A stretch of 64,000 bases of DNA from Escherichia coli (GTDB lineage Bacteria; Pseudomonadota; Gammaproteobacteria; Enterobacterales; Enterobacteriaceae), in assembly GCF_024502345.1 (NCBI RefSeq), contig NZ_JALDNN010000001.1. One strand, 5' to 3'. The notes under the pieces are model-generated. The model saw nothing but the letters and a program-made list of their open reading frames with translations. It had not been told where the DNA came from and ran no database searches. The position numbers and the translations under genes were made by a program. Of this stretch, positions 1-42,478 are shown in pieces (the first letter of the stretch is position 1; the number at the start of each line of letters is the position of its first letter).

Positions 1-1
1 T

Positions 2-193
2 CGTCGCAACGCTGGCGTCATCCTGAACACGCTCAACCAGAAGCGTAATGAGGCGGTTGGTAAGTACGTTCAGCAAAACGGTATCAAGCGAGTGGAAGCG
101 CCTCAGGCTTCTATAGATTACCTGAAGCAGCACCCCGAGCTGTCAATCGACTTCATTAATCGCTACGGATATCTTCCATCTTTGGGGCAGTAA
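2..193 (+). CDS. 3' end of a phage structural/ejection-type gene, truncated by the window edge
   Basis: Frame 2 is open from the window edge to a TAA at 191-193; the stop abuts the next gene's ATG (TAAATG), suggesting translational coupling. No family assignment possible from 63 aa. Confidence 0.35.
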   Translation, partial: RRNAGVILNTLNQKRNEAVGKYVQQNGIKRVEAPQASIDYLKQHPELSIDFINRYGYLPSLGQ

Positions 194-649
194 ATGGCTA
201 ATTACCGTGATTTGTTAGAGCAGGCTGGCGCACGTTACGGTGTGCCAGAAGGGTTGATGACTGCACTGGGTGCCAAGGAGTCTTCTTACAACCCTGCCGC
301 AGTAAGCTCCGCCGGGGCTGTAGGATTGACTCAGGTCATGCCTGGGACATGGCGTGATATGGGTTATACCGATGAGCAAATGCAAAACCCCGAATATCAA
401 GCTGACGCTGGCGCGCGCTATCTGGCAAAGATGTACCAGCAGTTTGGTAACTGGCGTGACGCTCTTCAGGCTTATCACGACGGTCCCGGCAACGTTATGA
501 AGGCAAAGCGTGGTGAATATACGCCAGGACCTGAAGGCCGCGGTTACGTTGATGATCGCTTTGCTCAATGGGCGGGTGACCCGGTGACAGACTCAACAGT
601 CGAACAGCGCGCCACCTCTGCAAAGGTACCTTTGCTGATTGTTATCTGA
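194..649 (+). CDS. Phage lytic transglycosylase (SLT-domain) protein, probably virion/ejection-associated
   Basis: 151-aa ORF with the SLT signature (GAKESSYNPAAVSSAGAVGLTQVMP, catalytic Glu-Ser context); sits in the prophage late region upstream of the mnt/tailspike module. Confidence 0.7.
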   Translation: MANYRDLLEQAGARYGVPEGLMTALGAKESSYNPAAVSSAGAVGLTQVMPGTWRDMGYTDEQMQNPEYQADAGARYLAKMYQQFGNWRDALQAYHDGPGNVMKAKRGEYTPGPEGRGYVDDRFAQWAGDPVTDSTVEQRATSAKVPLLIVI

Positions 650-1163
650 TGTTACTGCTACTGTTGCATGTTACCGTGTTTCCAAATCCTGAATTGCAGT
701 TTGTATATGTGTCAACGCGTGTTGGGTAAGGTTGAGTTATAACAGGCTGGCGCGCTTTTTGCTCGATCGCTTGCATTGTGTTTACAGCCTGATAATTCAA
801 TAAAGCCTGCTGGAATGCTTGGCTTTGTGCTATTTGTTGGGCTTGTTCTTGGCTTTGTAATTGAACATAAAGATTCTGAAGCTCAAGTCTTGCCTGTGCG
901 TCACTTATCTTGCCTTCATCGACACCTTGCCCGAGCATCTTTGCAGCAAGGACATACAGCTTAGGTGTTGGTGCTGATGCCATGCGTGAGTCGTTCTTCA
1001 CACTGGCATCAAGGCAATTAGCCATATCGCTAAGCTTTTGATAGCGTTGTTCGCAACTTGCTTGATAGTCACTTACTTTTGCGCATCCAACCAGCAGAAG
1101 CGGGATAATTAACAGTGATTTTTTCATATGGTTAACTCTCCTTAGTTTTTCACAGGATATCAT
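642..1163 (-). CDS. Prophage-encoded lipoprotein, candidate superinfection-exclusion or moron protein
   Basis: 173-aa ORF with an N-terminal signal peptide and lipobox (MKKSLLIIPLLLVG-C), followed by a Gln-rich, coiled-coil-like segment; RBS-like GGAGAG upstream; lies where sieA sits in P22 (next to mnt). Confidence 0.6.
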   Translation of the reverse strand: MISCEKLRRVNHMKKSLLIIPLLLVGCAKVSDYQASCEQRYQKLSDMANCLDASVKNDSRMASAPTPKLYVLAAKMLGQGVDEGKISDAQARLELQNLYVQLQSQEQAQQIAQSQAFQQALLNYQAVNTMQAIEQKARQPVITQPYPTRVDTYTNCNSGFGNTVTCNSSSNIR

Positions 1164-1197
1164 GAAGGCTATGCCATTTTAGCCGGAAACTAGATTT

Positions 1198-1497
1198 CTA
1201 TGTTTCCTTTTTATTATTGCTATACATGGTCTTAAGCGTTTCAAATACCATTTTCTTAACCATATCAGATTGTTGTTCTGCCATACGCTCTGCATCATCA
1301 ATGTAAACGGATGCAGAGCTTTGTTTAGCCAACGATTCTTCAATCGCTGCAATTATCTCTGAGTTCAGAGATCTGTTATTCATCTTCGCACGCTGCTTAA
1401 TTTTCGCGTGGAGTTCATGCGGAAGTCTCAAGTGAAACTGCGCCTCATCGTATTTGCTGTACATCCTTGATGCCTCACCAGTTGGGTGGAATGGCAT
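1198..1497 (-). CDS. mnt: Mnt-like ribbon-helix-helix repressor (Arc/MetJ superfamily)
   Basis: C-terminal segment [26 protein letters not shown] closely parallels P22 Mnt as I recall it, and the N-terminal RHH motif ([28 protein letters not shown]) is present. The true start may be the internal Met (MYSKYDE, ~1464). Divergent from the tailspike gene. Confidence 0.7.
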
Positions 1498-1584
1498 CGT
1501 AACCTACTGGATAAATACTCAATAGTACCATTTCGGTATGCAATCACATCATGGTTGCATCATATCATCGTCTGGAGCAATGAA

Positions 1585-1725
1585 ATGTCAGATATCACCG
1601 CAAATGTTGTGGTAAGCATGCCTTCGCAACTCTTCACTATGGCGCGTTCTTTTAAAGCGGTTGCCAATGGTAAAATTTATATCGGTAAAATTGACACTGA
1701 CCCGGTAAATCCTGAAAACCAGATT
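1585..1725 (+). pseudogene. P22-type tailspike gene, 5' fragment (head-binding domain), cut off by an IS insertion
   Basis: [47 protein letters not shown] matches the P22 gp9 N-terminus almost residue for residue; the frame then runs into IS-end sequence and stops. Confidence 0.8.
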
Positions 1726-1761
1726 GATCTTGACCCTCCATCTCCGAACAGCTTTTGTATC

Positions 1762-2643
1762 TTAAGTTAACGATGTCCGCTGCCGCCGGTATTCCCTCGG
1801 GGAGTGATATCCCAGCGCGCTGTGCGGGTGGTTTTCATTGTAATGCGTGAACGCTACTGCAAGGTTTCGCAGTGCTGTTCTCACATCCGGTTTTGGCATG
1901 AACGCGATATAGTCTTCTTTCATCGTTTTCACGAACCGTTCGGCCATGCCATTACTCTGCGGGCTGCTCACCGCTGTTGTGCAGGGCTCCAGATTCAGCT
2001 CTCTCGCGAACCTCCGCGTTTCATACGCGGTATACGCTGAACCGTTATCCGTCAGCCACTGCACCGCTGTGTCGGGCAACCTGTCGCCGAAGCGCTTTTC
2101 CACCGACCTCAGCATCACATCCTGCACGGTCGAACTGTCATAGCCTCCCGTGCTTGCTGCCCAGTCTATGGCCTCACGGTCGCAGCAGTCCAGCGCGAAC
2201 GTTACCCGCAGTTTTTCGCCGTTGTCGCAGCCGAACTCGAAGCCATCTGAACACCAGCGCATATCGCTTTCTGCCACCGCTATCTTGCCCTTATGTTCAC
2301 GCTTCGGTCGCTCTGGTTTGTGATGCAACAACAACAGGTTATGCTCGCTCATTATCCTGTAAAGCCGTTTGGCATTCACAGGTGGCTGTCCCTCTGTGCG
2401 ACGTTGCTTGCGCAGGATGCCCCACACGCGTCGATAACCATAACTCGGCATATCGCTGATAATGTTGAGGATAGCCGACAGTATTTCTGCGTCTGCTTCT
2501 TCATTACGCCGGTTACAGCGCCTGTCCTGCCAGTCGGCAGAACGGTTAATCCGCAGTGACAGTTGCGCACGCGACACGCCCATGGTCCGGCTGACCATGG
2601 CTATTCCCCGTCCTTTGGCAACAAGGGCGCGTGCGCTATCCAT
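1762..2643 (-). CDS. IS transposase OrfB (DDE integrase-like catalytic domain), IS2 InsD homologue
   Basis: 293 aa; motifs shared with IS2 InsD ([55 protein letters not shown]). Confidence 0.85.
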
Positions 2644-2996
2644 TTTCGCGACTGACCGTACTCCACGGCTTCTTTCAGGATCTCAACTTCCATCGTTTTC
2701 TTGCCCAGAAGGCGCTGAAGCTCCCGGACCTGCTTCAGAGCAGCAGTAAGCTCAGAAGCAGGAACGACTTCCTCTCCAGCCGCAACGGCGGTGAGGCTGC
2801 CTTCCTGATATTGCTTCTTCCACTTAAACAGCAGGCTGGGCTGGATACCATGCAGGCGGGCGACATGGGAGACATTCATACCCGGCTCCATCGTCTGCTG
2901 GATAATGGCGATCTTCTCCTGAGGAGTTTTACGTTTACGGACTTCTTGCCCTAACAGGATCCCGGTCATCTCAAAATTGGCGTTAGTGTTAGACAT
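2601..2996 (-). CDS. IS transposase OrfA (HTH DNA-binding), IS2 InsC homologue
   Basis: 131 aa; [61 protein letters not shown] closely parallels IS2 InsC; overlaps OrfB in the -1 frame. Confidence 0.85.
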
Positions 2997-3060
2997 ATAT
3001 TCAAGCCTATCTCTTATCTGGAGATACAGCTACTGTCCGGTGTTTCAGGGGGCTACATCA

Positions 3061-5026
3061 TCCTGAAAACCAGATTCAGGTTTATGTGGAGAATGAGGAT
3101 GGTTCTCACGTTCCTGTTTCGCAGCCAATCATCATTAACGCCGCTGGTTATCCTGTATATAACGGACAGATTGCCAAGTTCGTAACTGTGCAAGGCCACT
3201 CTATGGCTGTTTATGATGCATATGGTGCGCAGCAGTTTTATTTCCCTAATGTGCTGAAATACGACCCTGATCAGTTAAGGAAGGAAATTACATCCACAGG
3301 GAAAGGAAAAGGTGCGGATATGATCCCCCTTCAGCAGGGTGGAACAGTTCAAAGTGCTATATATTATGTTACGCCATCATCGGCAGGAATAACTGGTGAT
3401 GGGACAGATGAAGGAGAAAAATTAATCTATTTGCTAAATAGATATGATGGGTATGTTATCGACCTGTCTGGAATGACAATTAAAACAAGCGAGATGATTA
3501 GTGTTGTTTTCAACAAAAAAACAACAATAAGAAATGGAACTATTATCTATACTGGAGCAGTAAGTCCATTTGTTTTAAAAATAACGTGCTCATCCGTTCT
3601 TTCCATAGAGGATATTGCCATTGACGGCAAGAACAATGCTGCAAAGCTACTCTATGCGCTTTCATCCGATAACAACGCAAAAATATCTATTTCAGGCTAT
3701 TCTGGAAGAAACGCTAGGGAAGCAATTGACACAGGATTATCAACTGCTGCATATATTACGGCAGGCTCATTGTTTAGATGGAAAGAGATTAGGCTGTCAG
3801 ATTCCTCAGCTTATGATATTTCAAGCTCAGGTGGTTCTAATGTTGGTCGCGGGTTTATGGTTCAAAACTTTGAATATTGCTATGTTAGGAATATTTCAGT
3901 ATTCCGAGTTGGACCATATCAGGATGCGGATGGGATATATGCATCATCCCCTAACTATTTATCAGCAGTATTTGATATTAGTGATTCGTATTTTGAAGAC
4001 TGCCAGAAGAGATCAGTCAAATCACAGATAATGAACTCTCGGGTGAGCAATATTGTAGAGCGGCGCACACAGGCCTTTGCTGTTGCTGCTGGGCAGTCAG
4101 CAGTAGACTTGCAGGCAGGAGGTTCTCTAGACGGACTTAGTTGCTTCTATGCTGACGGAGCAGCCCCACAGTCAATCGTTTCAGGTGGTCTTGTCAGTGG
4201 AGCACCGACATTTCGAGGTATTTCTTTGCGAAATATTGACGTCAACTGCGAAGATCCGTCAGATATTATCTCTCGTCTGGTATCATTTTATAATAACTCG
4301 CCGAATACATATGATGGTTACATTGCTGAAAATATAAAATGTAATGCCATAATAGAGAATGTTGGATTTCTGTATAGCAATACAGGAAACACAAATTTTA
4401 ATGTATATCTCTTCAAAGAGGTTATCTTCAGAAACATTCAGTCGTCAGGAATGGCAGGAACGGTGCCAACTGCTGTAATTCAAATAAGCAGAGGTTCCTC
4501 TGCGTATGTGAAGGCTATAGTACGGGTGCAAAACCTCAATCTTGGCGATGGAAATATCGCACCATTGTATTATCTTGACCCATTGCCAGGGGTTACAACT
4601 TTTCTTGATGTTTTATTTCGTCAAGTAAGTAATTGCAGAGGGTTTGATACGCTAACTAACGTAAATTCCGATACATCTCAACGCATCTATGCAGTAACTG
4701 CAGACGTAGCTGAAAATGAATCTACAACACTTTTAATACCAATAAAGACAACAAATGGAAAAACGGCAGTAAAAATATCTGTAATGTATAACTCAAACAG
4801 GGATGAGCATGCAGCAAAGCTATTCACAGAAGGATACTGGTTCTTCGGGTTATCATTGCCATATTATATAGAATCAGTCGCTGGAGTAAAAACACAAACA
4901 AACGTTGGATCTATCGTGGTCACAGTTGCTGAAAACAATTTAGTTGTAAAAAAAATCGCTGGAACCACCGCTGCAAGCGGGCGGATGACAGTGATTATTG
5001 AGCATATATCATGCGTGAATATGTAG
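3061..5026 (+). pseudogene. P22-type tailspike gene, 3' portion (rest of head-binding domain plus a divergent beta-helix receptor-binding domain)
   Basis: Resumes …(PENQI)[50 protein letters not shown]… matching P22 gp9 residues ~45-110, then diverges; the six-frame ORF (3086..5026) starts at an internal Met. AT-rich relative to the flanks. Confidence 0.75.
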
Positions 5027-5160
5027 GTTAATCTGATAAATTGGGAATGGATTGGTTGCAGAATGGCGCCCTCTGTGAGACATCTGCTGCATTAGGAGTG
5101 ATAACATACATCATCAACGATGCGATGTGAGTTTGATTATTGCACGGTTTATAGGTGGCG

Positions 5161-6318
5161 CTATGCCACCCTCTCATCAATCCAGTCCGCCCACCACTGC
5201 ATCATTTCTCTGCGCTTATCGAGATACTGAGCATGGTTGTAAATCCCACGCACAGATCCGCCGTTGGCATGTGCCAGTTGCACTTCAATAGCGTCAGCAG
5301 GCCATTCGTGCTCGTTCATAATCGTGCTGAATTCATGTCTGAATCCGTGACCGCTATCCAGACCCTCATAGCCGATTTGTTTGATCACAAGTAGCACCGC
5401 GTTCTCGCAGATTGGCTTCTTCTTATCGTTGCGCCCGGCAAAAACAAATTCTGATACTGGTTTGGTGATGGAGCTTAACGTAGTGAGAAGTTCAACCACC
5501 TGGTCTGACATCGGGACCACATGAATTTTGCGTCCTTTCATCACACTGGCGTCGATGGTGATAATCCTGTTTTCAAAATCGACGTTCTTCCATAGCATAG
5601 AACGAAGCTCTTTCGTTCTTAGGGCTGTGTAGCGTAAAACTTTGGTCGCAATGAGCGATACAATACTTCCTGAAAATGTTGCCAGTGCTTTGTTGAATGC
5701 CGGGATCTGGTCTGCAGGAAGAAACGGGAAGTTCTTCTTGCGGTATCCCTTCATGGCGTCAGCAAGGTCAGGTGCCGGGTTATATTTAGCCCTACCAGTA
5801 ACAATAGCGTAACGGAAAACCTCGCCGCATCTTCTGCGGGCTTTGTTGGCTCTCTCCATTGCGCCGCGATCTTCAAATCTGCGGATTACTTCCAGCAGTT
5901 GCATCGGCTCAATATCCTGAATTTCAAGGCCGCCGATGATGGGTAAAATGTCGTCATCAAACATTTTGGCAAGTTCAGTTGCATAGCCTACTGACCAGAC
6001 TTGCTTCTTGTGCTCGTACCACTCCTTGTAAATCGCACTAAATGAATTGTTGTTAGACGAAGCCTTTTTCGCCTTTACCGGATCGATGCCAACCGAGATG
6101 TCTTTCCTCGCAGTCCATGCCTTATCCCTTGCTTCCTGCAAAGTCATAAGCGGATATTTTCCGACGGTCAGGATTTTCTCCTTACCGTCAATCTTGTAGC
6201 GAAGCTGCCATACCTTTTTCCCGGATACAGGAACATAAAGGTACAGGCCATTACCATCGAGAAGGCGGTATGGTTTTTCTTTCGGCTTTGCTGCTTCAAT
6301 CTGCTTAACGGTGAGCAT
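5161..6318 (-). CDS. intS: Prophage integrase, tyrosine recombinase (IntS / CPS-53 type)
   Basis: Near-identical by eye to E. coli IntS as I recall it (MLTVKQIEAAKPKEKPYRLLDGNGLYLYVPVSGKKVWQLRYKIDGKEK…HGFRHEF…); next to the tRNA. An in-frame upstream ATG at 6354 would give 397 aa; the annotated start is probably the MLTVKQ Met. Confidence 0.9.
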   Translation of the reverse strand: MLTVKQIEAAKPKEKPYRLLDGNGLYLYVPVSGKKVWQLRYKIDGKEKILTVGKYPLMTLQEARDKAWTARKDISVGIDPVKAKKASSNNNSFSAIYKEWYEHKKQVWSVGYATELAKMFDDDILPIIGGLEIQDIEPMQLLEVIRRFEDRGAMERANKARRRCGEVFRYAIVTGRAKYNPAPDLADAMKGYRKKNFPFLPADQIPAFNKALATFSGSIVSLIATKVLRYTALRTKELRSMLWKNVDFENRIITIDASVMKGRKIHVVPMSDQVVELLTTLSSITKPVSEFVFAGRNDKKKPICENAVLLVIKQIGYEGLDSGHGFRHEFSTIMNEHEWPADAIEVQLAHANGGSVRGIYNHAQYLDKRREMMQWWADWIDERVA

Positions 6319-6479
6319 GGGTAAAAATCCGGTGGGTAAAATTATTTTATCCACTTTTTACCCGTCATGGAGTGCGGCTGTCAACGATCTGAAGCGAACC
6401 ATGACGAACTGTTAGTTTCCGGGAGGCTTGATATTCTGGGGATTTTACGGACTGGTACGGATGGGAGCGAACTGATAAA

Positions 6480-6554
6480 TGGTGTCCCCTGCAGGAATCG
6501 AACCTGCAATTAGCCCTTAGGAGGGGCTCGTTATATCCATTTAACTAAGAGGAC
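6480..6554 (-). tRNA. argW: tRNA-Arg (anticodon CCU); prophage attachment site
   Basis: Reverse complement reads GTCCTCTTAGTTAAATGGATATAACGAGCCCCTCCTAAGGGCTAATTGCAGGTTCGATTCCTGCAGGGGACACCA, with a CCT anticodon in the loop, T-arm GGTTCGATTCC and 3' CCA. Confidence 0.9.
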
Positions 6555-18003: not shown

Positions 18004-20655
18004 ATGGATACGTGTATGCCTGACCATTCTCTTTTCCGACTGCGGGTGCTTCCCTGCTGCATTGCGCTGGCAATGTCAGGGTGTTATGTCAATGCCTGGG
18101 TTGAAGATGAAATTCAGTTTGATTCCCGTTTTCTGGAGTTAAAAGGCGACACAAAAATCGATCTGAAGCGATTTTCCAGCCAGGGATATGTCGAACCTGG
18201 TAAATACAATTTACAGGTTCAACTAAATAAACAGCCGCTGGCGGAAGAATACGATATTTACTGGTACGCCTCTGAGAACGATGCCAGTAAAACCTATGCC
18301 TGCCTGACGCCTGAACTGGTCGCGCAGTTTGGCTTAAAAGAGGATGTGGCAAAAAACCTGCAATGGATCCACGACGGCAAATGCCTGAAACCCGGTCAAC
18401 TGGAAGGCATTGATATTAAAGCTGACCTGAGTCAGTCAGCGTTAGTCATTTCATTACCCCAGGCTTACCTTGAATATACCGACATCAACTGGGATCCACC
18501 TTCACGCTGGGATGACGGTATTTCTGGTTTAATTGCTGACTACAGTATTACCGCCCAGACACGACATGAAGAAAATGGCGGGGATGACAGCAATGAAATC
18601 AGCGGCAACGGAACAGTTGGGGTTAACCTCGGCGCATGGCGTCTGCGAGCCGACTGGCAGACTGACTACCAGCACAGCAAAAGCAATGATGACGATGTTA
18701 TCAACGGTGATGACACGCAAAAAAACTGGGAGTGGAGCCGCTACTACGCCTGGCGGGCCTTACCGTCGCTAAAAGCCAAACTTGGCCTTGGCGAAGACTA
18801 CCTTAATTCTGATATTTTCGACGGCTTTAACTACGTGGGTGGCAGTATCAGCACCGACGATCAAATGTTGCCGCCGAATCTGCGCGGCTATGCGCCGGAT
18901 ATCTCCGGCGTGGCGCACACCACCGCGAAAGTGACCGTCAGCCAGATGGGCCGCGTGATTTACGAAACGCAGGTTCCGGCGGGGCCGTTCCGCATCCAGG
19001 ATCTTGGCGATTCTGTCTCCGGTACACTGCACATCCGCATTGAAGAACAGAACGGCCAGGTGCAGGAATATGACATCAACACCGCCTCGATGCCGTTCCT
19101 GACCCGCCCCGGCCAGGTGCGCTATAAGCTGATGATGGGCCGCCCGCAGGAGTGGGGGCATCATGTTGAGGGCGGTTTCTTCTCCGGCGGCGAAGCTTCA
19201 TGGGGGATTGCCAACGGCTGGTCGCTGTACGGCGGGGCGCTGGCAGATGAACACTATCAGTCGGCGGCGCTTGGCGTCGGTCGCGACCTGTCTGTCTTTG
19301 GCGCAGTCGCCTTTGATATCACCCACTCGCATACCCGCCTGGATAAAGAGACCGCCTACGGTAAAGGTTCACTGGACGGTAACTCGTTTCGCGTGAGCTA
19401 TTCCAAAGACTTCGATGAACTGAACAGCCGCGTCACTTTTGCCGGATACCGCTTCTCGGAAGAGAACTTCATGACCATGAGCGAGTATCTCGATGCCAGC
19501 GACAGCGAAATGGTGCGCACCGGCAACGACAAAGAGATGTACACCGCCACCTATAACCAGAACTTCAGGGATGCCGGTGTGTCTGTTTATCTCAACTACA
19601 CCCGCCATACCTACTGGGATCGCGACGAACAGACCAACTACAACGTCATGCTCTCGCACTACTTCAACCTGGGCAGTATCCGCAATATGAGCATTTCCAT
19701 GACCGGATACCGCTACGAGTATGATAACCAGGCCGATAAAGGTGTGTACATATCGCTCAGTATGCCGTGGGGTGACAGCAGCACCATCAGCTATAACGGC
19801 AACTACGGCAGCGGTTCGGACAGCAGCCAGGTGGGGTATTTCAGCCGTGTCGATGACGCAACTCACTACCAGCTGAACGTGGGGACCAGTGACAAACACT
19901 CCAGCGTTGACGGCTATTACAGCCACGATGGCTCGCTGGCGCAGGTGGACCTCAGCGCCAACTACCATGAAGGACAGTACACCTCGGCAGGTATTTCCTT
20001 ACAGGGCGGCGCGACGCTGACCGCGCAGGGTGGCGCGCTCCACCGTACCCAGAATATGGGCGGTACGCGCCTGCTGATTGATGCCGATGGCGTGGCTGGT
20101 GTTCCGGTGGAAGGAAATGGCGCGGCGGTTTACACCAATATGTTCGGTAAGACCGTGGTGGCAGACGTCAACAACTACTACCGCAATCAGGCCTATATCG
20201 ACCTTAACAACCTGCCGGAAAACGCCGAAGCCACCCAGTCCGTGGTGCAGGCGACGCTTACCGAAGGAGCCATTGGCTACCGTAAGTTTTCGGTTATCAG
20301 CGGGCAAAAAGCGATGGCGGTATTGCGCCTGCAAGATGGCAGTCATCCGCCGTTTGGCGCGGAAGTGAAAAATGACAACGCGCAGAACGTCGGTCTGGTT
20401 GATGATGACGGCAACGTCTACCTCGCGGGTGTCAAACCTGGCGAGCATATGATCGTTTCATGGGGCGGTGTGGCCCACTGTGATATTCATCTGCCGGACC
20501 CACTGCCAGCCGATCTGTTCAATGGCCTGTTACTACCATGTCAACAAACAGGGGCGATATCTCCTTCGATGCCTCATCAAATTAAGCCGGTGATCCAGGA
20601 GCAGACCCAGCAGGTGATGCCAACGGAAGCGCCGGTATCGGTATCCGCCAATTAA
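18004..20655 (+). CDS. yfcU: Fimbrial usher outer-membrane protein, apparently intact
   Basis: Uninterrupted 883-aa ORF of usher size and composition (Gly/Tyr/Asn-rich beta-barrel). Confidence 0.85.
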   Translation: MDTCMPDHSLFRLRVLPCCIALAMSGCYVNAWVEDEIQFDSRFLELKGDTKIDLKRFSSQGYVEPGKYNLQVQLNKQPLAEEYDIYWYASENDASKTYACLTPELVAQFGLKEDVAKNLQWIHDGKCLKPGQLEGIDIKADLSQSALVISLPQAYLEYTDINWDPPSRWDDGISGLIADYSITAQTRHEENGGDDSNEISGNGTVGVNLGAWRLRADWQTDYQHSKSNDDDVINGDDTQKNWEWSRYYAWRALPSLKAKLGLGEDYLNSDIFDGFNYVGGSISTDDQMLPPNLRGYAPDISGVAHTTAKVTVSQMGRVIYETQVPAGPFRIQDLGDSVSGTLHIRIEEQNGQVQEYDINTASMPFLTRPGQVRYKLMMGRPQEWGHHVEGGFFSGGEASWGIANGWSLYGGALADEHYQSAALGVGRDLSVFGAVAFDITHSHTRLDKETAYGKGSLDGNSFRVSYSKDFDELNSRVTFAGYRFSEENFMTMSEYLDASDSEMVRTGNDKEMYTATYNQNFRDAGVSVYLNYTRHTYWDRDEQTNYNVMLSHYFNLGSIRNMSISMTGYRYEYDNQADKGVYISLSMPWGDSSTISYNGNYGSGSDSSQVGYFSRVDDATHYQLNVGTSDKHSSVDGYYSHDGSLAQVDLSANYHEGQYTSAGISLQGGATLTAQGGALHRTQNMGGTRLLIDADGVAGVPVEGNGAAVYTNMFGKTVVADVNNYYRNQAYIDLNNLPENAEATQSVVQATLTEGAIGYRKFSVISGQKAMAVLRLQDGSHPPFGAEVKNDNAQNVGLVDDDGNVYLAGVKPGEHMIVSWGGVAHCDIHLPDPLPADLFNGLLLPCQQTGAISPSMPHQIKPVIQEQTQQVMPTEAPVSVSAN

Positions 20656-20677
20656 CAACGTGATTAAGGAATGATCC

Positions 20678-21436
20678 ATGACGAATCTATTTTGCTCTGC
20701 CAGAACGGCCGCAACGACGCTGGCGTTACTGATAACTGCCGCCAGCCTGTCAGCACAGGCCTCTGTCACGCCGGACCGTACACGCCTGATTTTTAACGAA
20801 AGTGATAAATCAATCAGCGTCACGCTGCGCAATAACGACCCGAAAATGCCGTATCTGGCACAAAGCTGGATGGAAGATGAACAGGGTAACAAGATTAGCT
20901 CGCCACTGACGGTACTGCCGCCGGTGCAGCGCATCGATTCCATGATGAACGGTCAGGTGAAGGTACAGGGCATGCCGGATATCAACAAGCTGCCTGCCGA
21001 CCGCGAGAGCGTGTTCTATTTCAACGTGCGTGAGATCCCGCCGAAATCGAACAAACCCAACACGTTACAGATTGCGCTGCAAACGCGCATCAAGCTGTTC
21101 TGGCGACCAAAGGCGCTGGAAAACGTCAGCATGAAAAATCCGTGGCAGCATAAGGTGACCTTAACCCGCAGCGGCCAGGAGTTTACAGTCAATAACCCGA
21201 CGCCGTACTTCGTGGTTATCAGTAACGCCAGTGCGCAGAAAAATGGTAATCCGGCAGCGGGATTTTCCCCGCTGGTGATATCGCCAAAAACCTCCGTACC
21301 GTTAAAGGTCAAAATGGATAGCGTCCCGGTGCTGACCTACGTCAACGACTATGGCGCGCGGATGCCGCTGTTCTTCACCTGTACGGGAAACACCTGCCAG
21401 GTGGATGAAAAGCAAAACAGCCAGGGCCAGGGATAG
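20678..21436 (+). CDS. yfcS: Periplasmic fimbrial chaperone (PapD-like)
   Basis: 252 aa with signal peptide and chaperone motifs (RLIFNESDKSISVTLRN, FYFNVREIPP). Confidence 0.85.
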   Translation: MTNLFCSARTAATTLALLITAASLSAQASVTPDRTRLIFNESDKSISVTLRNNDPKMPYLAQSWMEDEQGNKISSPLTVLPPVQRIDSMMNGQVKVQGMPDINKLPADRESVFYFNVREIPPKSNKPNTLQIALQTRIKLFWRPKALENVSMKNPWQHKVTLTRSGQEFTVNNPTPYFVVISNASAQKNGNPAAGFSPLVISPKTSVPLKVKMDSVPVLTYVNDYGARMPLFFTCTGNTCQVDEKQNSQGQG

Positions 21437-21446
21437 GAGCACTAAT

Positions 21447-21947
21447 ATGAAAGGATCTTATTCGGCTTGGGTGTGGTTATTGCTATGTAGTATTGTGAGC
21501 ACGCCTGTAATGGCGGGTAGCAAATCGGTTGCGATGGTCTTGCGGGTGCTCGTTGATGCCCCGCCGCCCTGTACGGTAACTGGTGCGAGCGTGGAGTTCG
21601 GTAATGTATTTATTTCTAAGATCGATGGGGTAAGTTACAAACGCCCCATTGACTACTCGCTTGTGTGCAACAATCTGGCAATGGACGACCTGCGCTTAAA
21701 TATGCAGGCAACTACAACCGTGATTAACGGAGAAACGGTAATCGATACGGGTATTGCCGGTTTTGGAATTCGGATTCAAAAAGCCAGCGATCACTCCATT
21801 CTGGATTTAACGCCTGGCACATGGTTACCGTTTAACTTTTCATCGGGCGCACCGGCACTGGAAGCGGTTCCTGTCGTGCAGAGCGGTGTAACTCTAACGG
21901 CGGCGGAATTTAGCGCCAGTGCCACTATTGTGGTGGATTATCAATGA
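21447..21947 (+). CDS. yfcR: Fimbrial minor subunit
   Basis: Start chosen at MKGSYSAWVWLLLCSIVSTPVMA (signal peptide, RBS GGAGCA); the longer ORF from 21351 overlaps yfcS and is unlikely. Confidence 0.75.
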   Translation: MKGSYSAWVWLLLCSIVSTPVMAGSKSVAMVLRVLVDAPPPCTVTGASVEFGNVFISKIDGVSYKRPIDYSLVCNNLAMDDLRLNMQATTTVINGETVIDTGIAGFGIRIQKASDHSILDLTPGTWLPFNFSSGAPALEAVPVVQSGVTLTAAEFSASATIVVDYQ

Positions 21948-22414
21948 AACGGATTTCTCTCTTAATGTTGTGGGGCATTAGCTCTATGGCGCTCTCGAAT
22001 ATTTCTTTTCATGGTTATTTAGTGCAGCCACCGAATTGCACAATTAGTAATGGAGAAAATATAGAGTTGACGTTTCGGGACGTGAATATTGATGACATTA
22101 ACGGCAGCAATTATGAGCAGTTTGTGCCATATGCCATTACCTGTGATACCACTGTTCGTGACCCTCAAATGGAAATGACATTGACCTGGAGTGGCACACA
22201 GAGTGACTTTGATGATGCGGCTGTAACCACCGATATCAATGGATTAGCAATACATCTTAAACAAGCCGGAAGCGATTTTAAGCTGAATACCCCCTTAGTG
22301 GTGAATGAAACAGCCCTTCCTGTGATAACAGCCGTTCCCGTAAAAAAGAGTGGTGTCGATTTACCAGAGGCGGACTTTGAGGCGTGGGCTACGCTACAGG
22401 TGGATTACCAATGA
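21944..22414 (+). CDS. yfcQ: Fimbrial minor subunit
   Basis: 156 aa with signal peptide; pilin-like C-terminus (ATLQVDYQ). Confidence 0.75.
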   Translation: MKRISLLMLWGISSMALSNISFHGYLVQPPNCTISNGENIELTFRDVNIDDINGSNYEQFVPYAITCDTTVRDPQMEMTLTWSGTQSDFDDAAVTTDINGLAIHLKQAGSDFKLNTPLVVNETALPVITAVPVKKSGVDLPEADFEAWATLQVDYQ

Positions 22415-22932
22415 AGAAAAACAGTGTGTTGGTGCTTATTTGTAGTCTGCTGTTATTTAGTGGGATAGTCTCCGCTGCCGATAATCTGCATTTTACCGGT
22501 AATTTGTTTGGGAAATCCTGTACTCCTGTAATCAATGGCAACTTACTTGCGGAAATCCATTTCCCCACAATTGCGGCCAGCGATTTAATGCTACGTGGTC
22601 AGTCAGAGCGTGTGCCATTAGTCTTTCAGTTGAAAGATTGCAAAAGTGCCACGGCGTTTAATGTCAAGGTGACCTTGACGGGGACAGAAGACACCGACTT
22701 ACCTGGATTTCTGTCGATTGATTCATCATCTTCTGCAACGGGTGTTGGGATTGGCATTGAAACTGCCGGAGGGGCGGCTGTACCTATTAACAGCAACACA
22801 GGTGCCACATTCCCGTTAAATCAGGGAAATAACAGTGTCAATTTTAATACGTGGTTACAGGCCGTAAATGGACGAGATGTTACGTCCGGAGATTTCACCG
22901 CCACGATGACGGTAACTTTTGAGTATTTTTGA
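22411..22932 (+). CDS. yfcP: Fimbrial minor subunit
   Basis: Start chosen at MKKNSVLVLICSLLLFSGIVSA; pilin-like C-terminus (TMTVTFEYF). Confidence 0.75.
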   Translation: MKKNSVLVLICSLLLFSGIVSAADNLHFTGNLFGKSCTPVINGNLLAEIHFPTIAASDLMLRGQSERVPLVFQLKDCKSATAFNVKVTLTGTEDTDLPGFLSIDSSSSATGVGIGIETAGGAAVPINSNTGATFPLNQGNNSVNFNTWLQAVNGRDVTSGDFTATMTVTFEYF

Positions 22933-23777
22933 ATATGAAAAAATGGACATTTTTTTTAGCGGCGCTTCTGTTACTTATAGTAAATGTGGGAACATCAAAG
23001 AGCTATGCTGGTAGTAAGCTCATGAGTTCAACTTTTAAAAGTACTGAGATTTATTATGGGATGAATAGAATATCGCCTGTGGGTGATTTGTTTTTTTATG
23101 TCACGGTGCTGACACCAGGAGAGGTAAGTTATGGTCAATATAATTCGGACGCTCGGCGTGGCGACATACTCCCGGTGATTTCCTGGACCGGTTCCGGGCC
23201 TGCACCACAGTTGAAATTGACCGACTATGGTCGGACTGATACCTCGAATTGTCCAGGTATAAATACGAAGAATTTTTACTGTGCATATATGACGTTTGAT
23301 GTCACTGTCGAGTCTGATAATTATGGTTGCCCATGGCAGGCGTCATTTTATTCAGTTTCAGAACAGGTAGGATTTGGTGTTTATACCAGTCCAACGGTAC
23401 ATGATTCCGCTTGCCCCACGATTCCGGTTGCTTCTTTTGATATATCATGGAGTGAGAATTACGTTAGCCATAATAAAGCGTTGCGGTTGCAATCCGATGG
23501 TTCGACTATCACGACTACGCTTTCGACCTACCTGATGGAAAGCGGCAAACTCTGTGATGGCAGTGTTTTTGATTCCAGAGGGGCATATTGTCGTGCTGTT
23601 TCGGACTTATTAACCTTTACCTCGTATGGTTGTGATAATGCAAAGGTGACAGTCACCCCCTCACGTCAACCGGTGACGGACAAAAAGCTACACGACATTG
23701 TGGTACAGGTGAATACCAGTAGCCGTGCGCCAATTGATTCTACATGCCGTTTCCAGTATGTACTGAATGAACTATAG
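22929..23777 (+). CDS. yfcO: Fimbrial operon distal protein (DUF2544), possible tip adhesin
   Basis: 282 aa with signal peptide, Cys-rich; last gene of the yfc cluster. Confidence 0.7.
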   Translation: MNMKKWTFFLAALLLLIVNVGTSKSYAGSKLMSSTFKSTEIYYGMNRISPVGDLFFYVTVLTPGEVSYGQYNSDARRGDILPVISWTGSGPAPQLKLTDYGRTDTSNCPGINTKNFYCAYMTFDVTVESDNYGCPWQASFYSVSEQVGFGVYTSPTVHDSACPTIPVASFDISWSENYVSHNKALRLQSDGSTITTTLSTYLMESGKLCDGSVFDSRGAYCRAVSDLLTFTSYGCDNAKVTVTPSRQPVTDKKLHDIVVQVNTSSRAPIDSTCRFQYVLNEL

Positions 23778-23781
23778 TTGT

Positions 23782-23922
23782 GCGCTGATGCCTGATGCGA
23801 CGTGAACGTCTTATCAGGCCTACAATTGAATCACAATCTATTGAATTTGCACACTTTGTAGGCCGGATAAGGCGTTCACGCCGCATCCGGCATTCGGTGC
23901 CAGTGCCACATCCGGCACTTAA
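23782..23922. repeat. REP/BIME palindromic elements
   Basis: GCCTGATGCGACG…CTTATCAGGCCTAC and GGATAAGGCGTTCACGCCGCATCCGGCA motifs. Confidence 0.6.
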
Positions 23923-23925
23923 TAT

Positions 23926-24477
23926 TCACGGCAATTCCGGCGGCAGCCACTCTTCCACTTCAATCAACACCAGCAACGCCGCATCACCACCGTACTCTTT
24001 CGGCGCCTGGTGAAATGCCATCACATGTGGATGTTGCGCCAGCCACAGCGGCGTTTGCTGTTTCAAAATATGCTTACCATGCCCATGCATCACACAGGCA
24101 CAAAACACATGTTCACGGCGGCAGGCGGCAATCAACGCCCCCAGTTCCTGCTTGGCCTGTAGCTGCGTCAGACCGTGTAAATCCAAAAACAATTCCGGCG
24201 AATAATCACCGCGTCGCAACTTCTTCGCTTCAAAATGACTCACATCCGGGCGGACATATTTCACTGGGCCTTCGGTATTCAGTAACGGCTGAAACTCATC
24301 TGAGAAATAATGGCTGGCATCAGCCTGCTCCTGGATCAAGCGTTTCACCGGCACTTCGCTGATTTTCTTACGCTGCGGTCGGTGGACAATTGTGTCCTGC
24401 TTAATCTTGCGAGTCCCCGCCATCAACTGGCGAAACAGAGCCTGGTCCTCCTCGCTAAGTGTTGTTTTCTTTTTCAT
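23926..24477 (-). CDS. smrB: Smr-domain ribosome-rescue endonuclease
   Basis: 183 aa; Smr domain ([44 protein letters not shown]). Confidence 0.9.
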
Positions 24478-32698: not shown

Positions 32699-32818
32699 TT
32701 CGCAGTAGGTCGGAGTAGTCGGAGTAGGTCGGATAAGACGCGCCAGCGTCGCATCCGACATTACGCGCCAGCGTCGCATCCGACGTTACGCGCCAATGCG
32801 GCCTCCTGCACTAACGCC
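32699..32818. repeat. REP/BIME palindromic elements
   Basis: Repeated GTAGGTCGGA…GACGCGCCAGCGTCGCATCCGAC units. Confidence 0.6.
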
Positions 32819-41453: not shown

Positions 41454-42105
41454 GTTTCAGAATCGGTTAGTGGGCACGATCGTGCTGGTGGCGCTGGGGG
41501 TGATTGTACTTCCAGGGCTGCTGGACGGGCAGAAAAAACATTATCAGGATGAGTTTGCGGCTATCCCGCTGGTTCCAAAAGCGGGCGATCGCGATGAGCC
41601 TGATATGATGCCAGCCGCCACCCAGGCGTTGCCGACGCAGCCGCCGGAAGGCGCAGCGGAAGAGGTGCGGGCAGGTGATGCCGCAGCACCGTCGCTCGAT
41701 CCGGCCACTATTGCAGCCAATAACACCGAGTTTGAACCGGAACCTGCACCGGTCGCCCCACCGAAGCCGAAACCGGTGGAGCCGCCTAAGCCGAAGGTTG
41801 AAGCACCACCTGCGCCGAAGCCAGAACCGAAGCCGGTCGTGGAAGAAAAAGCAGCGCCAACGGGTAAAGCCTATGTTGTGCAACTGGGCGCGCTGAAAAA
41901 TGCCGATAAAGTGAATGAGATTGTCGGTAAGCTGCGCGGTGCCGGTTATCGGGTTTATACGTCGCCATCCACGCCAGTGCAGGGTAAAATTACCCGTATT
42001 CTGGTTGGGCCAGATGCCTCGAAAGATAAGCTGAAAGGTTCGCTTGGCGAACTGAAGCAGATCTCTGGTTTGAGCGGCGTGGTGATGGGCTACACGCCGA
42101 ATTAA
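41443..42105 (+). CDS. dedD: Cell-division protein DedD (SPOR domain)
   Basis: GTG start (VASKFQNRLVGTIVLVALGVIVL…); Pro/Ala/Lys/Glu-rich linker; C-terminal SPOR-like domain. Confidence 0.85.
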   Translation: MASKFQNRLVGTIVLVALGVIVLPGLLDGQKKHYQDEFAAIPLVPKAGDRDEPDMMPAATQALPTQPPEGAAEEVRAGDAAAPSLDPATIAANNTEFEPEPAPVAPPKPKPVEPPKPKVEAPPAPKPEPKPVVEEKAAPTGKAYVVQLGALKNADKVNEIVGKLRGAGYRVYTSPSTPVQGKITRILVGPDASKDKLKGSLGELKQISGLSGVVMGYTPN

Positions 42106-42114
42106 TACGGTTTT

Positions 42115-42478
<364 letters not shown>

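Follow-up and report, generated by a model that had tools for sequence, protein, structure and literature searches.

The Yfc fimbrial operon of E. coli, a pi-class system, has relatives in Pap and in the Stf fimbriae of Salmonella (stfACDEFG). Among ushers of solved structure, PapC (PDB 7lhg, 2vqi, 3fip) is the closest to the usher described here, with an E value of 9.5e-221 versus 2e-76 for FimD. Knowledge established for PapC and FimD provides a scheme for the assembly of Yfc. Subunits would be exported by Sec, captured in the periplasm by a PapD-like chaperone (20678-21436), and handed to the N-terminal domain of the usher. The plug would leave the 24-stranded usher barrel, and donor-strand exchange would polymerise the subunits, which would be extruded. 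The putative adhesin YfcO would leave first, followed by the minor pilins (at the YfcP, YfcQ and YfcR positions) and then by many copies of YfcV.

The yfcU pseudogene of K-12, the locus and its allelic variation have all been described previously. Yfc has been classified as a "core-associated" fimbrial type and reported to be intact in each of the 36 genomes surveyed; the type is defined by usher phylogeny together with locus position (PMC3559732). A comparison of E. coli W with K-12 noted allelic replacement at the yfc site (PMC3032704). In the K-12 reference, NC_000913.3, the usher gene yfcU (b4661) is listed as "pseudogene", as a preliminary description of the present DNA had stated, and the TG1 copy carries the PGAP flag "internal stop".

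The window analysed is a stretch of 64,000 nucleotides of E. coli DNA. In it, an operon with the order yfcV-U-S-R-Q-P-O lies between sixA (16242-16727) and smrB (23926-24477). All seven genes are uninterrupted, as had been proposed. The open reading frame that starts at 18004 or, probably, at 18016 and ends at 20655 is almost certainly the intact usher of a complete Yfc operon at the sixA-smrB site, in an O157:H7-like allele with a rare tip module; the K-12 copy is broken by one TAG, and the intact state is ordinary. The features of the locus are as follows.

16728..17370, no strand assigned: sixA-yfcV intergenic region, presumed regulatory/promoter region; 643 bp, 27.7% GC, several sigma-70-like matches
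17371..17934, + strand: yfcV, major fimbrial subunit, 187 aa; Pfam Fimbrial E 7e-17; named yfcV in a near-identical strain
17942..17965, + strand: hairpin and T-run directly after the yfcV stop; 10-bp stem with 6 G-C pairs, then TTTTTAAATG
18004..20655, + strand: yfcU-type outer-membrane usher, likely start 18016; from Pfam, PapC 7lhg_C and NF011812
19747..19749, + strand: TAC (Tyr) codon where K-12 yfcU has TAG; from pairwise alignment
20678..21436, + strand: yfcS-type periplasmic chaperone, 252 aa; PapD_N E 7e-37, PapD_C E 1e-11
21447..21947, + strand: yfcR-position minor fimbrial subunit, 166 aa; Pfam Fimbrial E 1.5e-13; C-terminus ...VVDYQ
21944..22414, + strand: yfcQ-position minor fimbrial subunit, 156 aa; Pfam Fimbrial E 8e-12
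22411..22932, + strand: yfcP-position minor fimbrial subunit, 173 aa; Pfam Fimbrial E 9e-21
22935..23777, + strand: yfcO-type putative tip adhesin, 280 aa; Pfam DUF2544 E 2e-73; PGAP "StfH/YfcO family fimbrial adhesin"
23786..23900, no strand assigned: palindromic repeats of REP/BIME type between yfcO and smrB, read from the sequence; right end of the variable segment

The same synteny, sixA / yfcV-U-S-R-Q-P-O / smrB (yfcN), is present in TG1, MG1655, O157:H7, NU14 and VCSW8. Thus the position between sixA and smrB (yfcN), as in MG1655, is that by which the Yfc type is recognized. As in Pap, the gene for the usher comes before that for the chaperone, and several minor tip subunits and a terminal protein, here a putative adhesin, follow. 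Unlike Pap, the operon has no upstream genes for papI/papB-type regulators and no PapG homologue; its terminal protein is of the DUF2544/StfH-YfcO family. The likeness to Stf is seen in the last gene, which PGAP places in the StfH/YfcO family, and in the best NCBIfam models for the chaperone (StfD, 337 bits) and the major pilin (StfA, 102 bits). Since these scores fall below the equivalog cut-offs (447 and 267 bits, respectively), the two proteins are related to those of Stf and are not Stf orthologues by NCBI criteria. YfcV ends in ...QITYL, the C-terminal strand with penultimate Tyr that is typical of pilins. By analogy with other fimbrial operons, the hairpin that follows its gene is possibly a partial terminator or attenuator that sets the ratio of major subunit to usher.

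The usher reading frame extends from 18004 to 20655 on the + strand as 883 codons with an ATG start and no internal stop, according to both the ORF listing and the alignment, and it is a real coding sequence rather than a chance ORF. The single unbroken frame of 883 aa given previously is therefore correct as a frame. The protein itself, however, is likely to be 879 aa, starting at the second ATG (18016), because three sources concur. First, this ATG is the annotated start in strain C 236-04A, whose usher is 100% identical (WP_001613532.1, 879 aa). Second, in the pairwise alignment it is the counterpart of the annotated K-12 yfcU start. Third, from this start residues 1-879 align with positions 1-880 of the 881 in NCBIfam NF011812, the model for the YfcU/StfC usher subfamily.

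The protein contains, in order, PapC_N (residues 38-183, E 2e-36), Usher (residues 202-762, E 1e-187, profile positions 3-549 of 549) and PapC_C (residues 773-829, E 3e-14), so that the N-terminal periplasmic domain, the beta-barrel with its plug, and the C-terminal domains expected of the usher family are all present in one polypeptide. The next gene downstream encodes a PapD-like chaperone (PapD_N and PapD_C), and the operon contains four genes for Pfam Fimbrial subunits, which is the gene company that ushers of the family keep. Against PapC (7lhg_C) the usher aligns in a single stretch over residues 2-806 of 809. The C-terminal CTD2 is covered as well (3l48/2kt6 match usher residues 757-843), and the usher extends about 36 C-terminal residues beyond the PapC alignment. 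Because PapC is aligned at full length in one stretch, there is no hidden frameshift relative to a functional usher, a defect that would have undercut the preliminary description. The NF011812 score is 1864.5 bits, end to end, against a cut-off of 972, and is nearly equal to that of an intact K-12-class YfcU (VCSW8, 1887.1 bits). Judged by its sequence, 18016-20655 is a full-length, PapC-type fimbrial usher of the YfcU subfamily, and membership with YfcU itself is very likely, given 90.6% protein identity with K-12, 78.5% with the usher at the same locus in the B2 strain NU14, and the shared NCBIfam subfamily. For annotation, this means that an usher whose identical copy has only a generic PGAP name, not "YfcU", can be assigned to the YfcU subfamily and to a complete operon.

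An open frame could still encode a non-functional protein, through a missense change or the loss of a partner, as in a cluster at an early stage of becoming a pseudogene. This is very improbable here. Both the family profile and PapC are matched end to end with no notable indels, all partner genes are intact, and the protein is 98.5% identical (96% in DNA) to the usher of O157:H7. Values of dN/dS for the usher, 0.04 versus O157:H7 and 0.05 versus K-12, show purifying selection on the sequence. Moreover, the gene has 100% DNA identity with that of C 236-04A, which encodes the identical protein, and the usher allele is present at 99% identity or more in 30 genomes.

Pairwise alignment with K-12 yfcU reveals that the sole lesion of the K-12 gene is a TAG at codon 579, without any frameshift, where the present gene has TAC. 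Thus, the K-12 copy is not intact, and a single TAC-to-TAG change accounts for its status as a pseudogene. In laboratory strains with supE44, among them TG1 and JM109, partial readthrough of UAG takes place. The ushers of O157:H7 and VCSW8 also have TAC at this position, and those of O157:H7, NU14 and VCSW8 are annotated as intact. Of 5426 complete E. coli genomes, 363 contain a K-12 63-mer that spans the TAG, and 1320 contain its counterpart with TAC (these counts stand in for a census of pseudogene flags across the 4215 matching genomes). Eight of the rows with the TAG 63-mer were sampled: six were K-12 or laboratory strains and two were recorded from Homo sapiens, one of these being JM109. 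The change at codon 579 is a single, lineage-restricted one. In E. coli, yfcU is normally intact and K-12 is the exception; consequently, to find the usher intact here is correct but ordinary. K-12 is an atypical reference at yfc, and "intact relative to K-12" is by itself unremarkable.

The operon is not the K-12 allele in repaired form. A K-12 allele with its stop codon reverted was considered and rejected, because the entire operon is a different, divergent allele. By sequence it is an O157:H7-like allele rather than the K-12 allele. The closest common allele is the O157:H7/O55:H7 cluster (ECs3216-ECs3222 in Sakai, per PMC3032704), in which all seven genes have the same lengths as here (for the six non-usher genes 187, 252, 166, 156, 173 and 280 aa). 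In DNA, the usher gene shares 84% identity with the K-12 class. Protein identities to O157:H7 and to K-12 are, respectively, 98.9% and 89.8% for yfcV, 96.4% and 86.5% for the yfcS chaperone, 96.4% and 46.8% for yfcR, 89.1% and 50.0% for yfcQ, 87.9% and 55.3% for yfcP, and 82.5% and 43.1% for yfcO. Identity to O157:H7 thus drops along the operon from yfcV through yfcR, yfcQ and yfcP to yfcO, a pattern that would fit a recombinant tip module.

K-12 shares with this operon the site, the order of its seven genes (yfcOPQRSUV) and the usher subfamily; it differs by the TAG, by the tip proteins, and by the upstream region, whose distal ~430 bp are unrelated. These differences might mean that a different fimbrial type has replaced yfc at the site, so that K-12 yfcU would not be orthologous to the present usher. 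The tip proteins, at 43-55% identity to K-12 and barely alignable in DNA, would fit such an exchange, as would the first ~430 bp upstream, which cannot be aligned to K-12, and the generic PGAP name of the usher. In addition, Archer et al. (PMC3032704) gave the E. coli W cluster, which is similar to ECs3216-3222, a separate name opposite K-12 yfc. However, the identity to K-12 of the usher, major pilin and chaperone, the unchanged gene order, gene number and flanks, and the unchanged NCBIfam usher subfamily with its near-equal score all argue against replacement by another type. By usher phylogeny and locus, the basis of typing in PMC3559732, the operon is very likely of the Yfc type and its tip module a variant one; moreover, all alleles have a conserved C-terminal third in YfcO. 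Replacement is accordingly improbable, though less so than a non-functional usher, and the reading as a Yfc operon with divergent tip genes is preferred.

Among the 5426 genomes, the usher has at least 99% DNA identity in the 30 already mentioned, 95-99% in 398, 80-90% in 3130 and 60-80% in 657. The tip module is at least 99% identical in 12 genomes, and the next class stands at 87.7%. The allele of the whole operon is likewise rare, with 99.7% identity or more in 12 of 5426 genomes. That the usher allele occurs in more genomes than the tip allele suggests mosaicism. Among the 12 genomes with the tip allele are ETEC O169:H41 and an O125ac:H10 strain; the present strain has the rare tip allele in common with some ETEC and other diarrhoeagenic lineages. 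Overall, the yfc locus differs strongly between alleles, chiefly in its tip and adhesin genes.

Compared over all five alleles, YfcO is hypervariable in its N-terminal ~150 aa and conserved in its C-terminal ~110 aa; differences from O157:H7 are concentrated in residues 1-120. The N-terminal half, where most of the divergence lies, is presumed to be the receptor-binding half. YfcO is a putative adhesin by virtue of its PGAP family name, terminal operon position, size and conservation pattern. Its length of 280 aa, its place as last gene, its variable N-terminal half and its conserved C-terminal third fit a two-domain tip adhesin like FimH or PapG. A sequence search of the PDB with YfcO returned no solved relative. 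The AlphaFold model, built from a 5-sequence alignment, is poor (mean pLDDT 60.7, below 50 in the C-terminal part) and has no Foldseek match in the PDB at E ≤ 0.001. All that Foldseek returned were generic proteins with two Ig domains (Fabs, TCRs), with a TM of about 0.2 and E > 0.01, and these give no usable evidence on an adhesin fold in either direction. A further, tentative proposal is that in the rare allele of the yfcR-O module (21447-23777) the YfcO N-terminus may have a receptor specificity unlike that of O157:H7, K-12 or B2, and that the locus may hold a balanced polymorphism of long standing that recombination shuffles. Besides the suggested mosaicism, signs of such a polymorphism are the saturated synonymous divergence between allele classes and a raised dS that reaches into smrB. 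We consider this proposal rather doubtful. If Yfc is expressed in the host, the rare tip allele could matter for tissue or host tropism.

The sixA-yfcV intergenic region is presumed to have promoter function. The region is 89% identical to that of O157:H7 over its full length and can be aligned to K-12 only from 17164 onward, at 79% identity. No regulator-like ORF was found in 16728..17370. Two GATC sites, at 17034 and 17267, lie 233 bp apart; these are no evidence of Pap-like control, and with no suitable ORF upstream, neither a phase-variation switch nor a papI/papB-like regulator is supported. The GC content falls to 25% in 16800-17199. Upstream regions as AT-rich as this (25-28% GC) are typically silenced by H-NS. 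The preliminary description had suggested that the strain may carry a functional Yfc system, but intact ORFs do not by themselves demonstrate that fimbriae are produced. The operon might be intact and yet cryptic, silenced at the level of transcription (for example, by H-NS), so that no fimbriae would normally be made and the phenotype would differ little from that of K-12. Besides the low GC, a passage in Wurpel et al. (PMC3559732), citing Korea et al. 2010, calls yad, yeh and yfc "functional but cryptic surface organelles". Under most conditions, therefore, the operon may be silent. On the other hand, dN/dS is 0.04-0.20 for all seven genes versus O157:H7; such sustained purifying selection implies a use for the operon in some natural niche, and the near-universal occurrence of an intact locus argues likewise. 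We regard a cryptic state as evenly balanced between true and false.

Elsewhere in the window, an IS3-family element lies at 1100-3400; a search for inverted repeats that would mark its ends gave none at the settings used. At the downstream border of the operon, the REP/BIME-type repeats explain why the whole-operon search gave ~35 additional matches per genome, and beyond them the alignment to K-12 picks up again at 23926 with 97% identity.

The yfc operon of the window (yfcV-U-S-R-Q-P-O) encodes chaperone-usher fimbriae and lies between sixA and smrB. Names and domains were assigned from Pfam and from the annotation of a near-identical strain:

16242-16727, sixA, left flank of the operon
17371-17934, yfcV, major pilin
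18004/18016-20655, yfcU type, usher
20678-21436, yfcS type, PapD-like chaperone
21447-21947, yfcR position, minor pilin
21944-22414, yfcQ position, minor pilin
22411-22932, yfcP position, minor pilin
22935-23777, yfcO type, DUF2544 / "StfH/YfcO family fimbrial adhesin"
23926-24477, - strand, smrB, right flank of the operon

None of the seven yfc genes is interrupted, and their lengths exactly equal those of the O157:H7 counterparts, in keeping with the preliminary description, which had suggested that all seven are intact. The same gene arrangement is seen by synteny in K-12 TG1, K-12 MG1655, O157:H7 DEC4E, the B2 strain NU14, and VCSW8, and the sixA/smrB position of the usher locus matches the Yfc type. 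The best-scoring NCBIfam models for the chaperone and the major pilin are Salmonella StfD and StfA, yet both matches fall below the equivalog cut-offs.

The usher ORF (18004..20655, + strand) begins with ATG, encodes 883 aa in the window ORF listing, and translates with zero internal stops. Pfam places PapC_N (38-183, E 2e-36), Usher (202-762, E 1e-187, profile positions 3-549 of 549), and PapC_C (773-829, E 3e-14) in the canonical order. Of the solved structures, PapC is matched over its full length in one unbroken alignment (7lhg_C residues 2-806 of 809, E 9.5e-221), with FimD a weaker match (E about 2e-76); therefore, there is no hidden frameshift relative to functional ushers. The single uninterrupted ORF of the preliminary description thus stands, although translation probably starts at the second ATG, 18016, to give 879 aa. 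This ATG is the PGAP-annotated start in the 100% identical usher gene of the O125ac:H10 strain C 236-04A and aligns with the annotated start of K-12 yfcU. From it, residues 1-879 cover positions 1-880 of the 881 in NCBIfam NF011812, and the usher passes the YfcU/StfC subfamily cut-off (1864.5 bits vs 972). Gene content, domain content, and integrity of the operon are read directly from these data.

The preliminary description gave K-12 yfcU as a disrupted pseudogene, and this is correct: the gene (b4661) is a pseudogene in the NC_000913.3 listing, and the TG1 copy carries the PGAP flag "internal stop". In translation, the K-12 gene (3357-6002 of the K-12 locus) is free of frameshifts and is interrupted by a single in-frame TAG, codon 579. 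At the corresponding codon the window reads TAC (Tyr, 19747-19749), as do O157:H7 and VCSW8.

An intact usher is not unusual in E. coli. Among 5426 complete genomes, a K-12-type 63-mer spanning the TAG has exact matches in 363, and its TAC version is found in 1320. Six of eight sampled TAG carriers (ER1709, MG1655, a Dam/Dcm strain, KMS2001, JM109, TP6-1, TUM22766, and M24FEP-TDT) are K-12 or laboratory strains, judged by name or source field; the source of JM109 and TP6-1 is recorded as Homo sapiens, and JM109 is a K-12 derivative. Annotation gives an intact usher CDS in O157:H7, NU14, and VCSW8. Some other genomes carry a disrupted usher: of the sampled rows, one has an IS903B insertion and another a deletion of nearly the whole gene. 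In the UPEC strain NU14, the usher and five other yfc genes are intact; the major pilin gene at the yfcV position (3388-3951 of the NU14 locus) is flagged by PGAP as partial, "missing C-terminus", and its translation reaches the end of the annotated span without a stop codon.

Yfc has been classed as a "core-associated" fimbrial type and reported as the sole such cluster intact in all 36 genomes examined, MG1655 included; with reference to Korea et al. 2010, the K-12 system is termed "functional but cryptic" [Wurpel et al. 2013, PMC3559732]. The intactness statement evidently disregarded the TAG of K-12. Both descriptions contrast with the pseudogene annotation of MG1655 yfcU and its in-frame TAG; K-12 Yfc function may depend on read-through of the stop, on a shortened usher, or on a different one. 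Replacement of one allele by another at this site is already on record: in E. coli W, the sixA-yfcN cluster was described as similar to O157:H7 ECs3216-3222 and was named separately from K-12 yfc [PMC3032704].

The usher of the window is not the K-12 allele. Across the collection, ushers separate into discrete classes by DNA identity.

Usher DNA identity to the window, number of genomes, and example
At least 99%: 30; C 236-04A
95-99%: 398; O157:H7, 96.1%
80-90%: 3130; K-12 class, about 84%, PGAP name yfcU
60-80%: 657; B2 strains such as NU14, about 77%

The flanks match K-12 DNA at 97-98% identity, whereas from ~16750 to 23926 identity is 83% over yfcV-yfcS, and yfcR-yfcO is essentially unalignable.

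Protein identity of the window genes to K-12 and to O157:H7
V: 89.8%, 98.9%
U: 90.6%, 98.5%
S: 86.5%, 96.4%
R: 46.8%, 96.4%
Q: 50.0%, 89.1%
P: 55.3%, 87.9%
O: 43.1%, 82.5%

Because identity to O157:H7 drops along the operon, and because the usher allele occurs in 30 genomes and the tip module (yfcR-O, 21447-23777) at 99% or more in only 12 (next class, 87.7%), the operon may be mosaic. The whole-operon allele is at least 99.7% identical in 12 genomes, including ETEC O169:H41 strains, C 236-04A, and poultry isolates; the best match beyond these reaches 93%.

Compared with K-12, synonymous sites of the operon are close to saturation or past it: dS is 0.8-1.1 in V, U, and S, and in R, Q, and O it could not be computed. 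The low dN/dS of the yfc genes (0.04-0.20) indicates purifying selection and speaks for a system in use, not one in decay. In smrB, which adjoins the adhesin gene, dS is 0.40 vs K-12 and 0.75 vs O157:H7 with hardly any amino-acid change (dN 0-0.017); on the sixA side, raised dS is absent (0.05-0.11). Recombination or old polymorphism at the locus thus seems to spill past its right boundary into smrB.

YfcO differs from that of O157:H7 mostly in its N-terminal half (identity is 60-65% at residues 1-80 and 92-98% at 161-280). In all five alleles, the last ~110 residues are conserved, with hypervariability over the first ~150, as expected if the pilin domain of a putative adhesin were conserved and its receptor-binding domain variable. 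Structural confirmation of this two-domain architecture, sought among solved relatives and through a predicted model and a fold search, was not obtained.

By homology with PapC/PapD and FimD/FimC, the chaperone would capture Sec-exported subunits through donor-strand complementation, and the N-terminal domain of the usher would recruit the chaperone-subunit complexes. The plug would be displaced from the barrel, through which the subunits, polymerising by donor-strand exchange, would leave; we infer the order adhesin, minor pilins, YfcV rod. The C-termini of the four pilins, with a penultimate Tyr (...ITYL, ...VDYQ, ...VDYQ, ...FEYF), fit this scheme. A hairpin with a T-run immediately 3' of the yfcV stop (17942-17965) may act as an attenuator, and the AT-rich 643-bp region upstream of yfcV (27.7% GC) may be silenced by H-NS. 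The sixA-yfcV intergenic region contains two GATC sites (17034 and 17267). Its distal ~430 bp (16750-17164, 25% GC) has no detectable similarity to the upstream regions of K-12 or VCSW8 but is 89% identical to O157:H7; therefore, the presumed regulatory region is also allele-specific.

The intact usher is confirmed and its interpretation supported; nevertheless, the finding is ordinary. Earlier work already covers the pseudogene of K-12, the conservation of the Yfc locus, and its variety of alleles, and RefSeq already contains an identical usher protein. What remains mildly interesting is the rare tip/adhesin allele, along with the traces that long-standing allelic diversity and, apparently, recombination have left at the locus.

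Elsewhere, a P22-like prophage inserted at argW has its right end at 1-6554. This and other features are:

194-649, SLT-domain protein, prophage end
1762-2643, - strand, IS3-family transposase, just upstream of the tailspike ORF
3086-5026, tailspike ORF
5161-6354, - strand, IntS-type integrase, prophage end
6480-6554, tRNA-Arg(CCT), prophage end
8823-10043, - strand, intact 406-aa ORF adjoining fadL, no Pfam match
10408-11754, - strand, fadL, 448 aa, intact, full Toluene_X match
42113-42472, tandem array of four 91-bp REP-type units between dedD and cvpA

The Head_binding match (Pfam) of the tailspike starts at profile position 51; therefore, its N-terminus appears cut off. In the complete E. 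coli genomes of the collection, at most 44% of the prophage-end 5 kb occurs in one place, and C 236-04A, the closest genome, has a different prophage end there. In C 236-04A, otherwise 99.96% identical, fadL and the adjoining ORF are truncated by an IS1 insertion with deletion; that strain is therefore not the source of the window. The REP-type array is a known element, three of its four units matching Rfam naRNA4 (RF02564) at 73-80 bits (gathering score 59.5); smaller repeats lie at 32700-32795 and 41748-41795.
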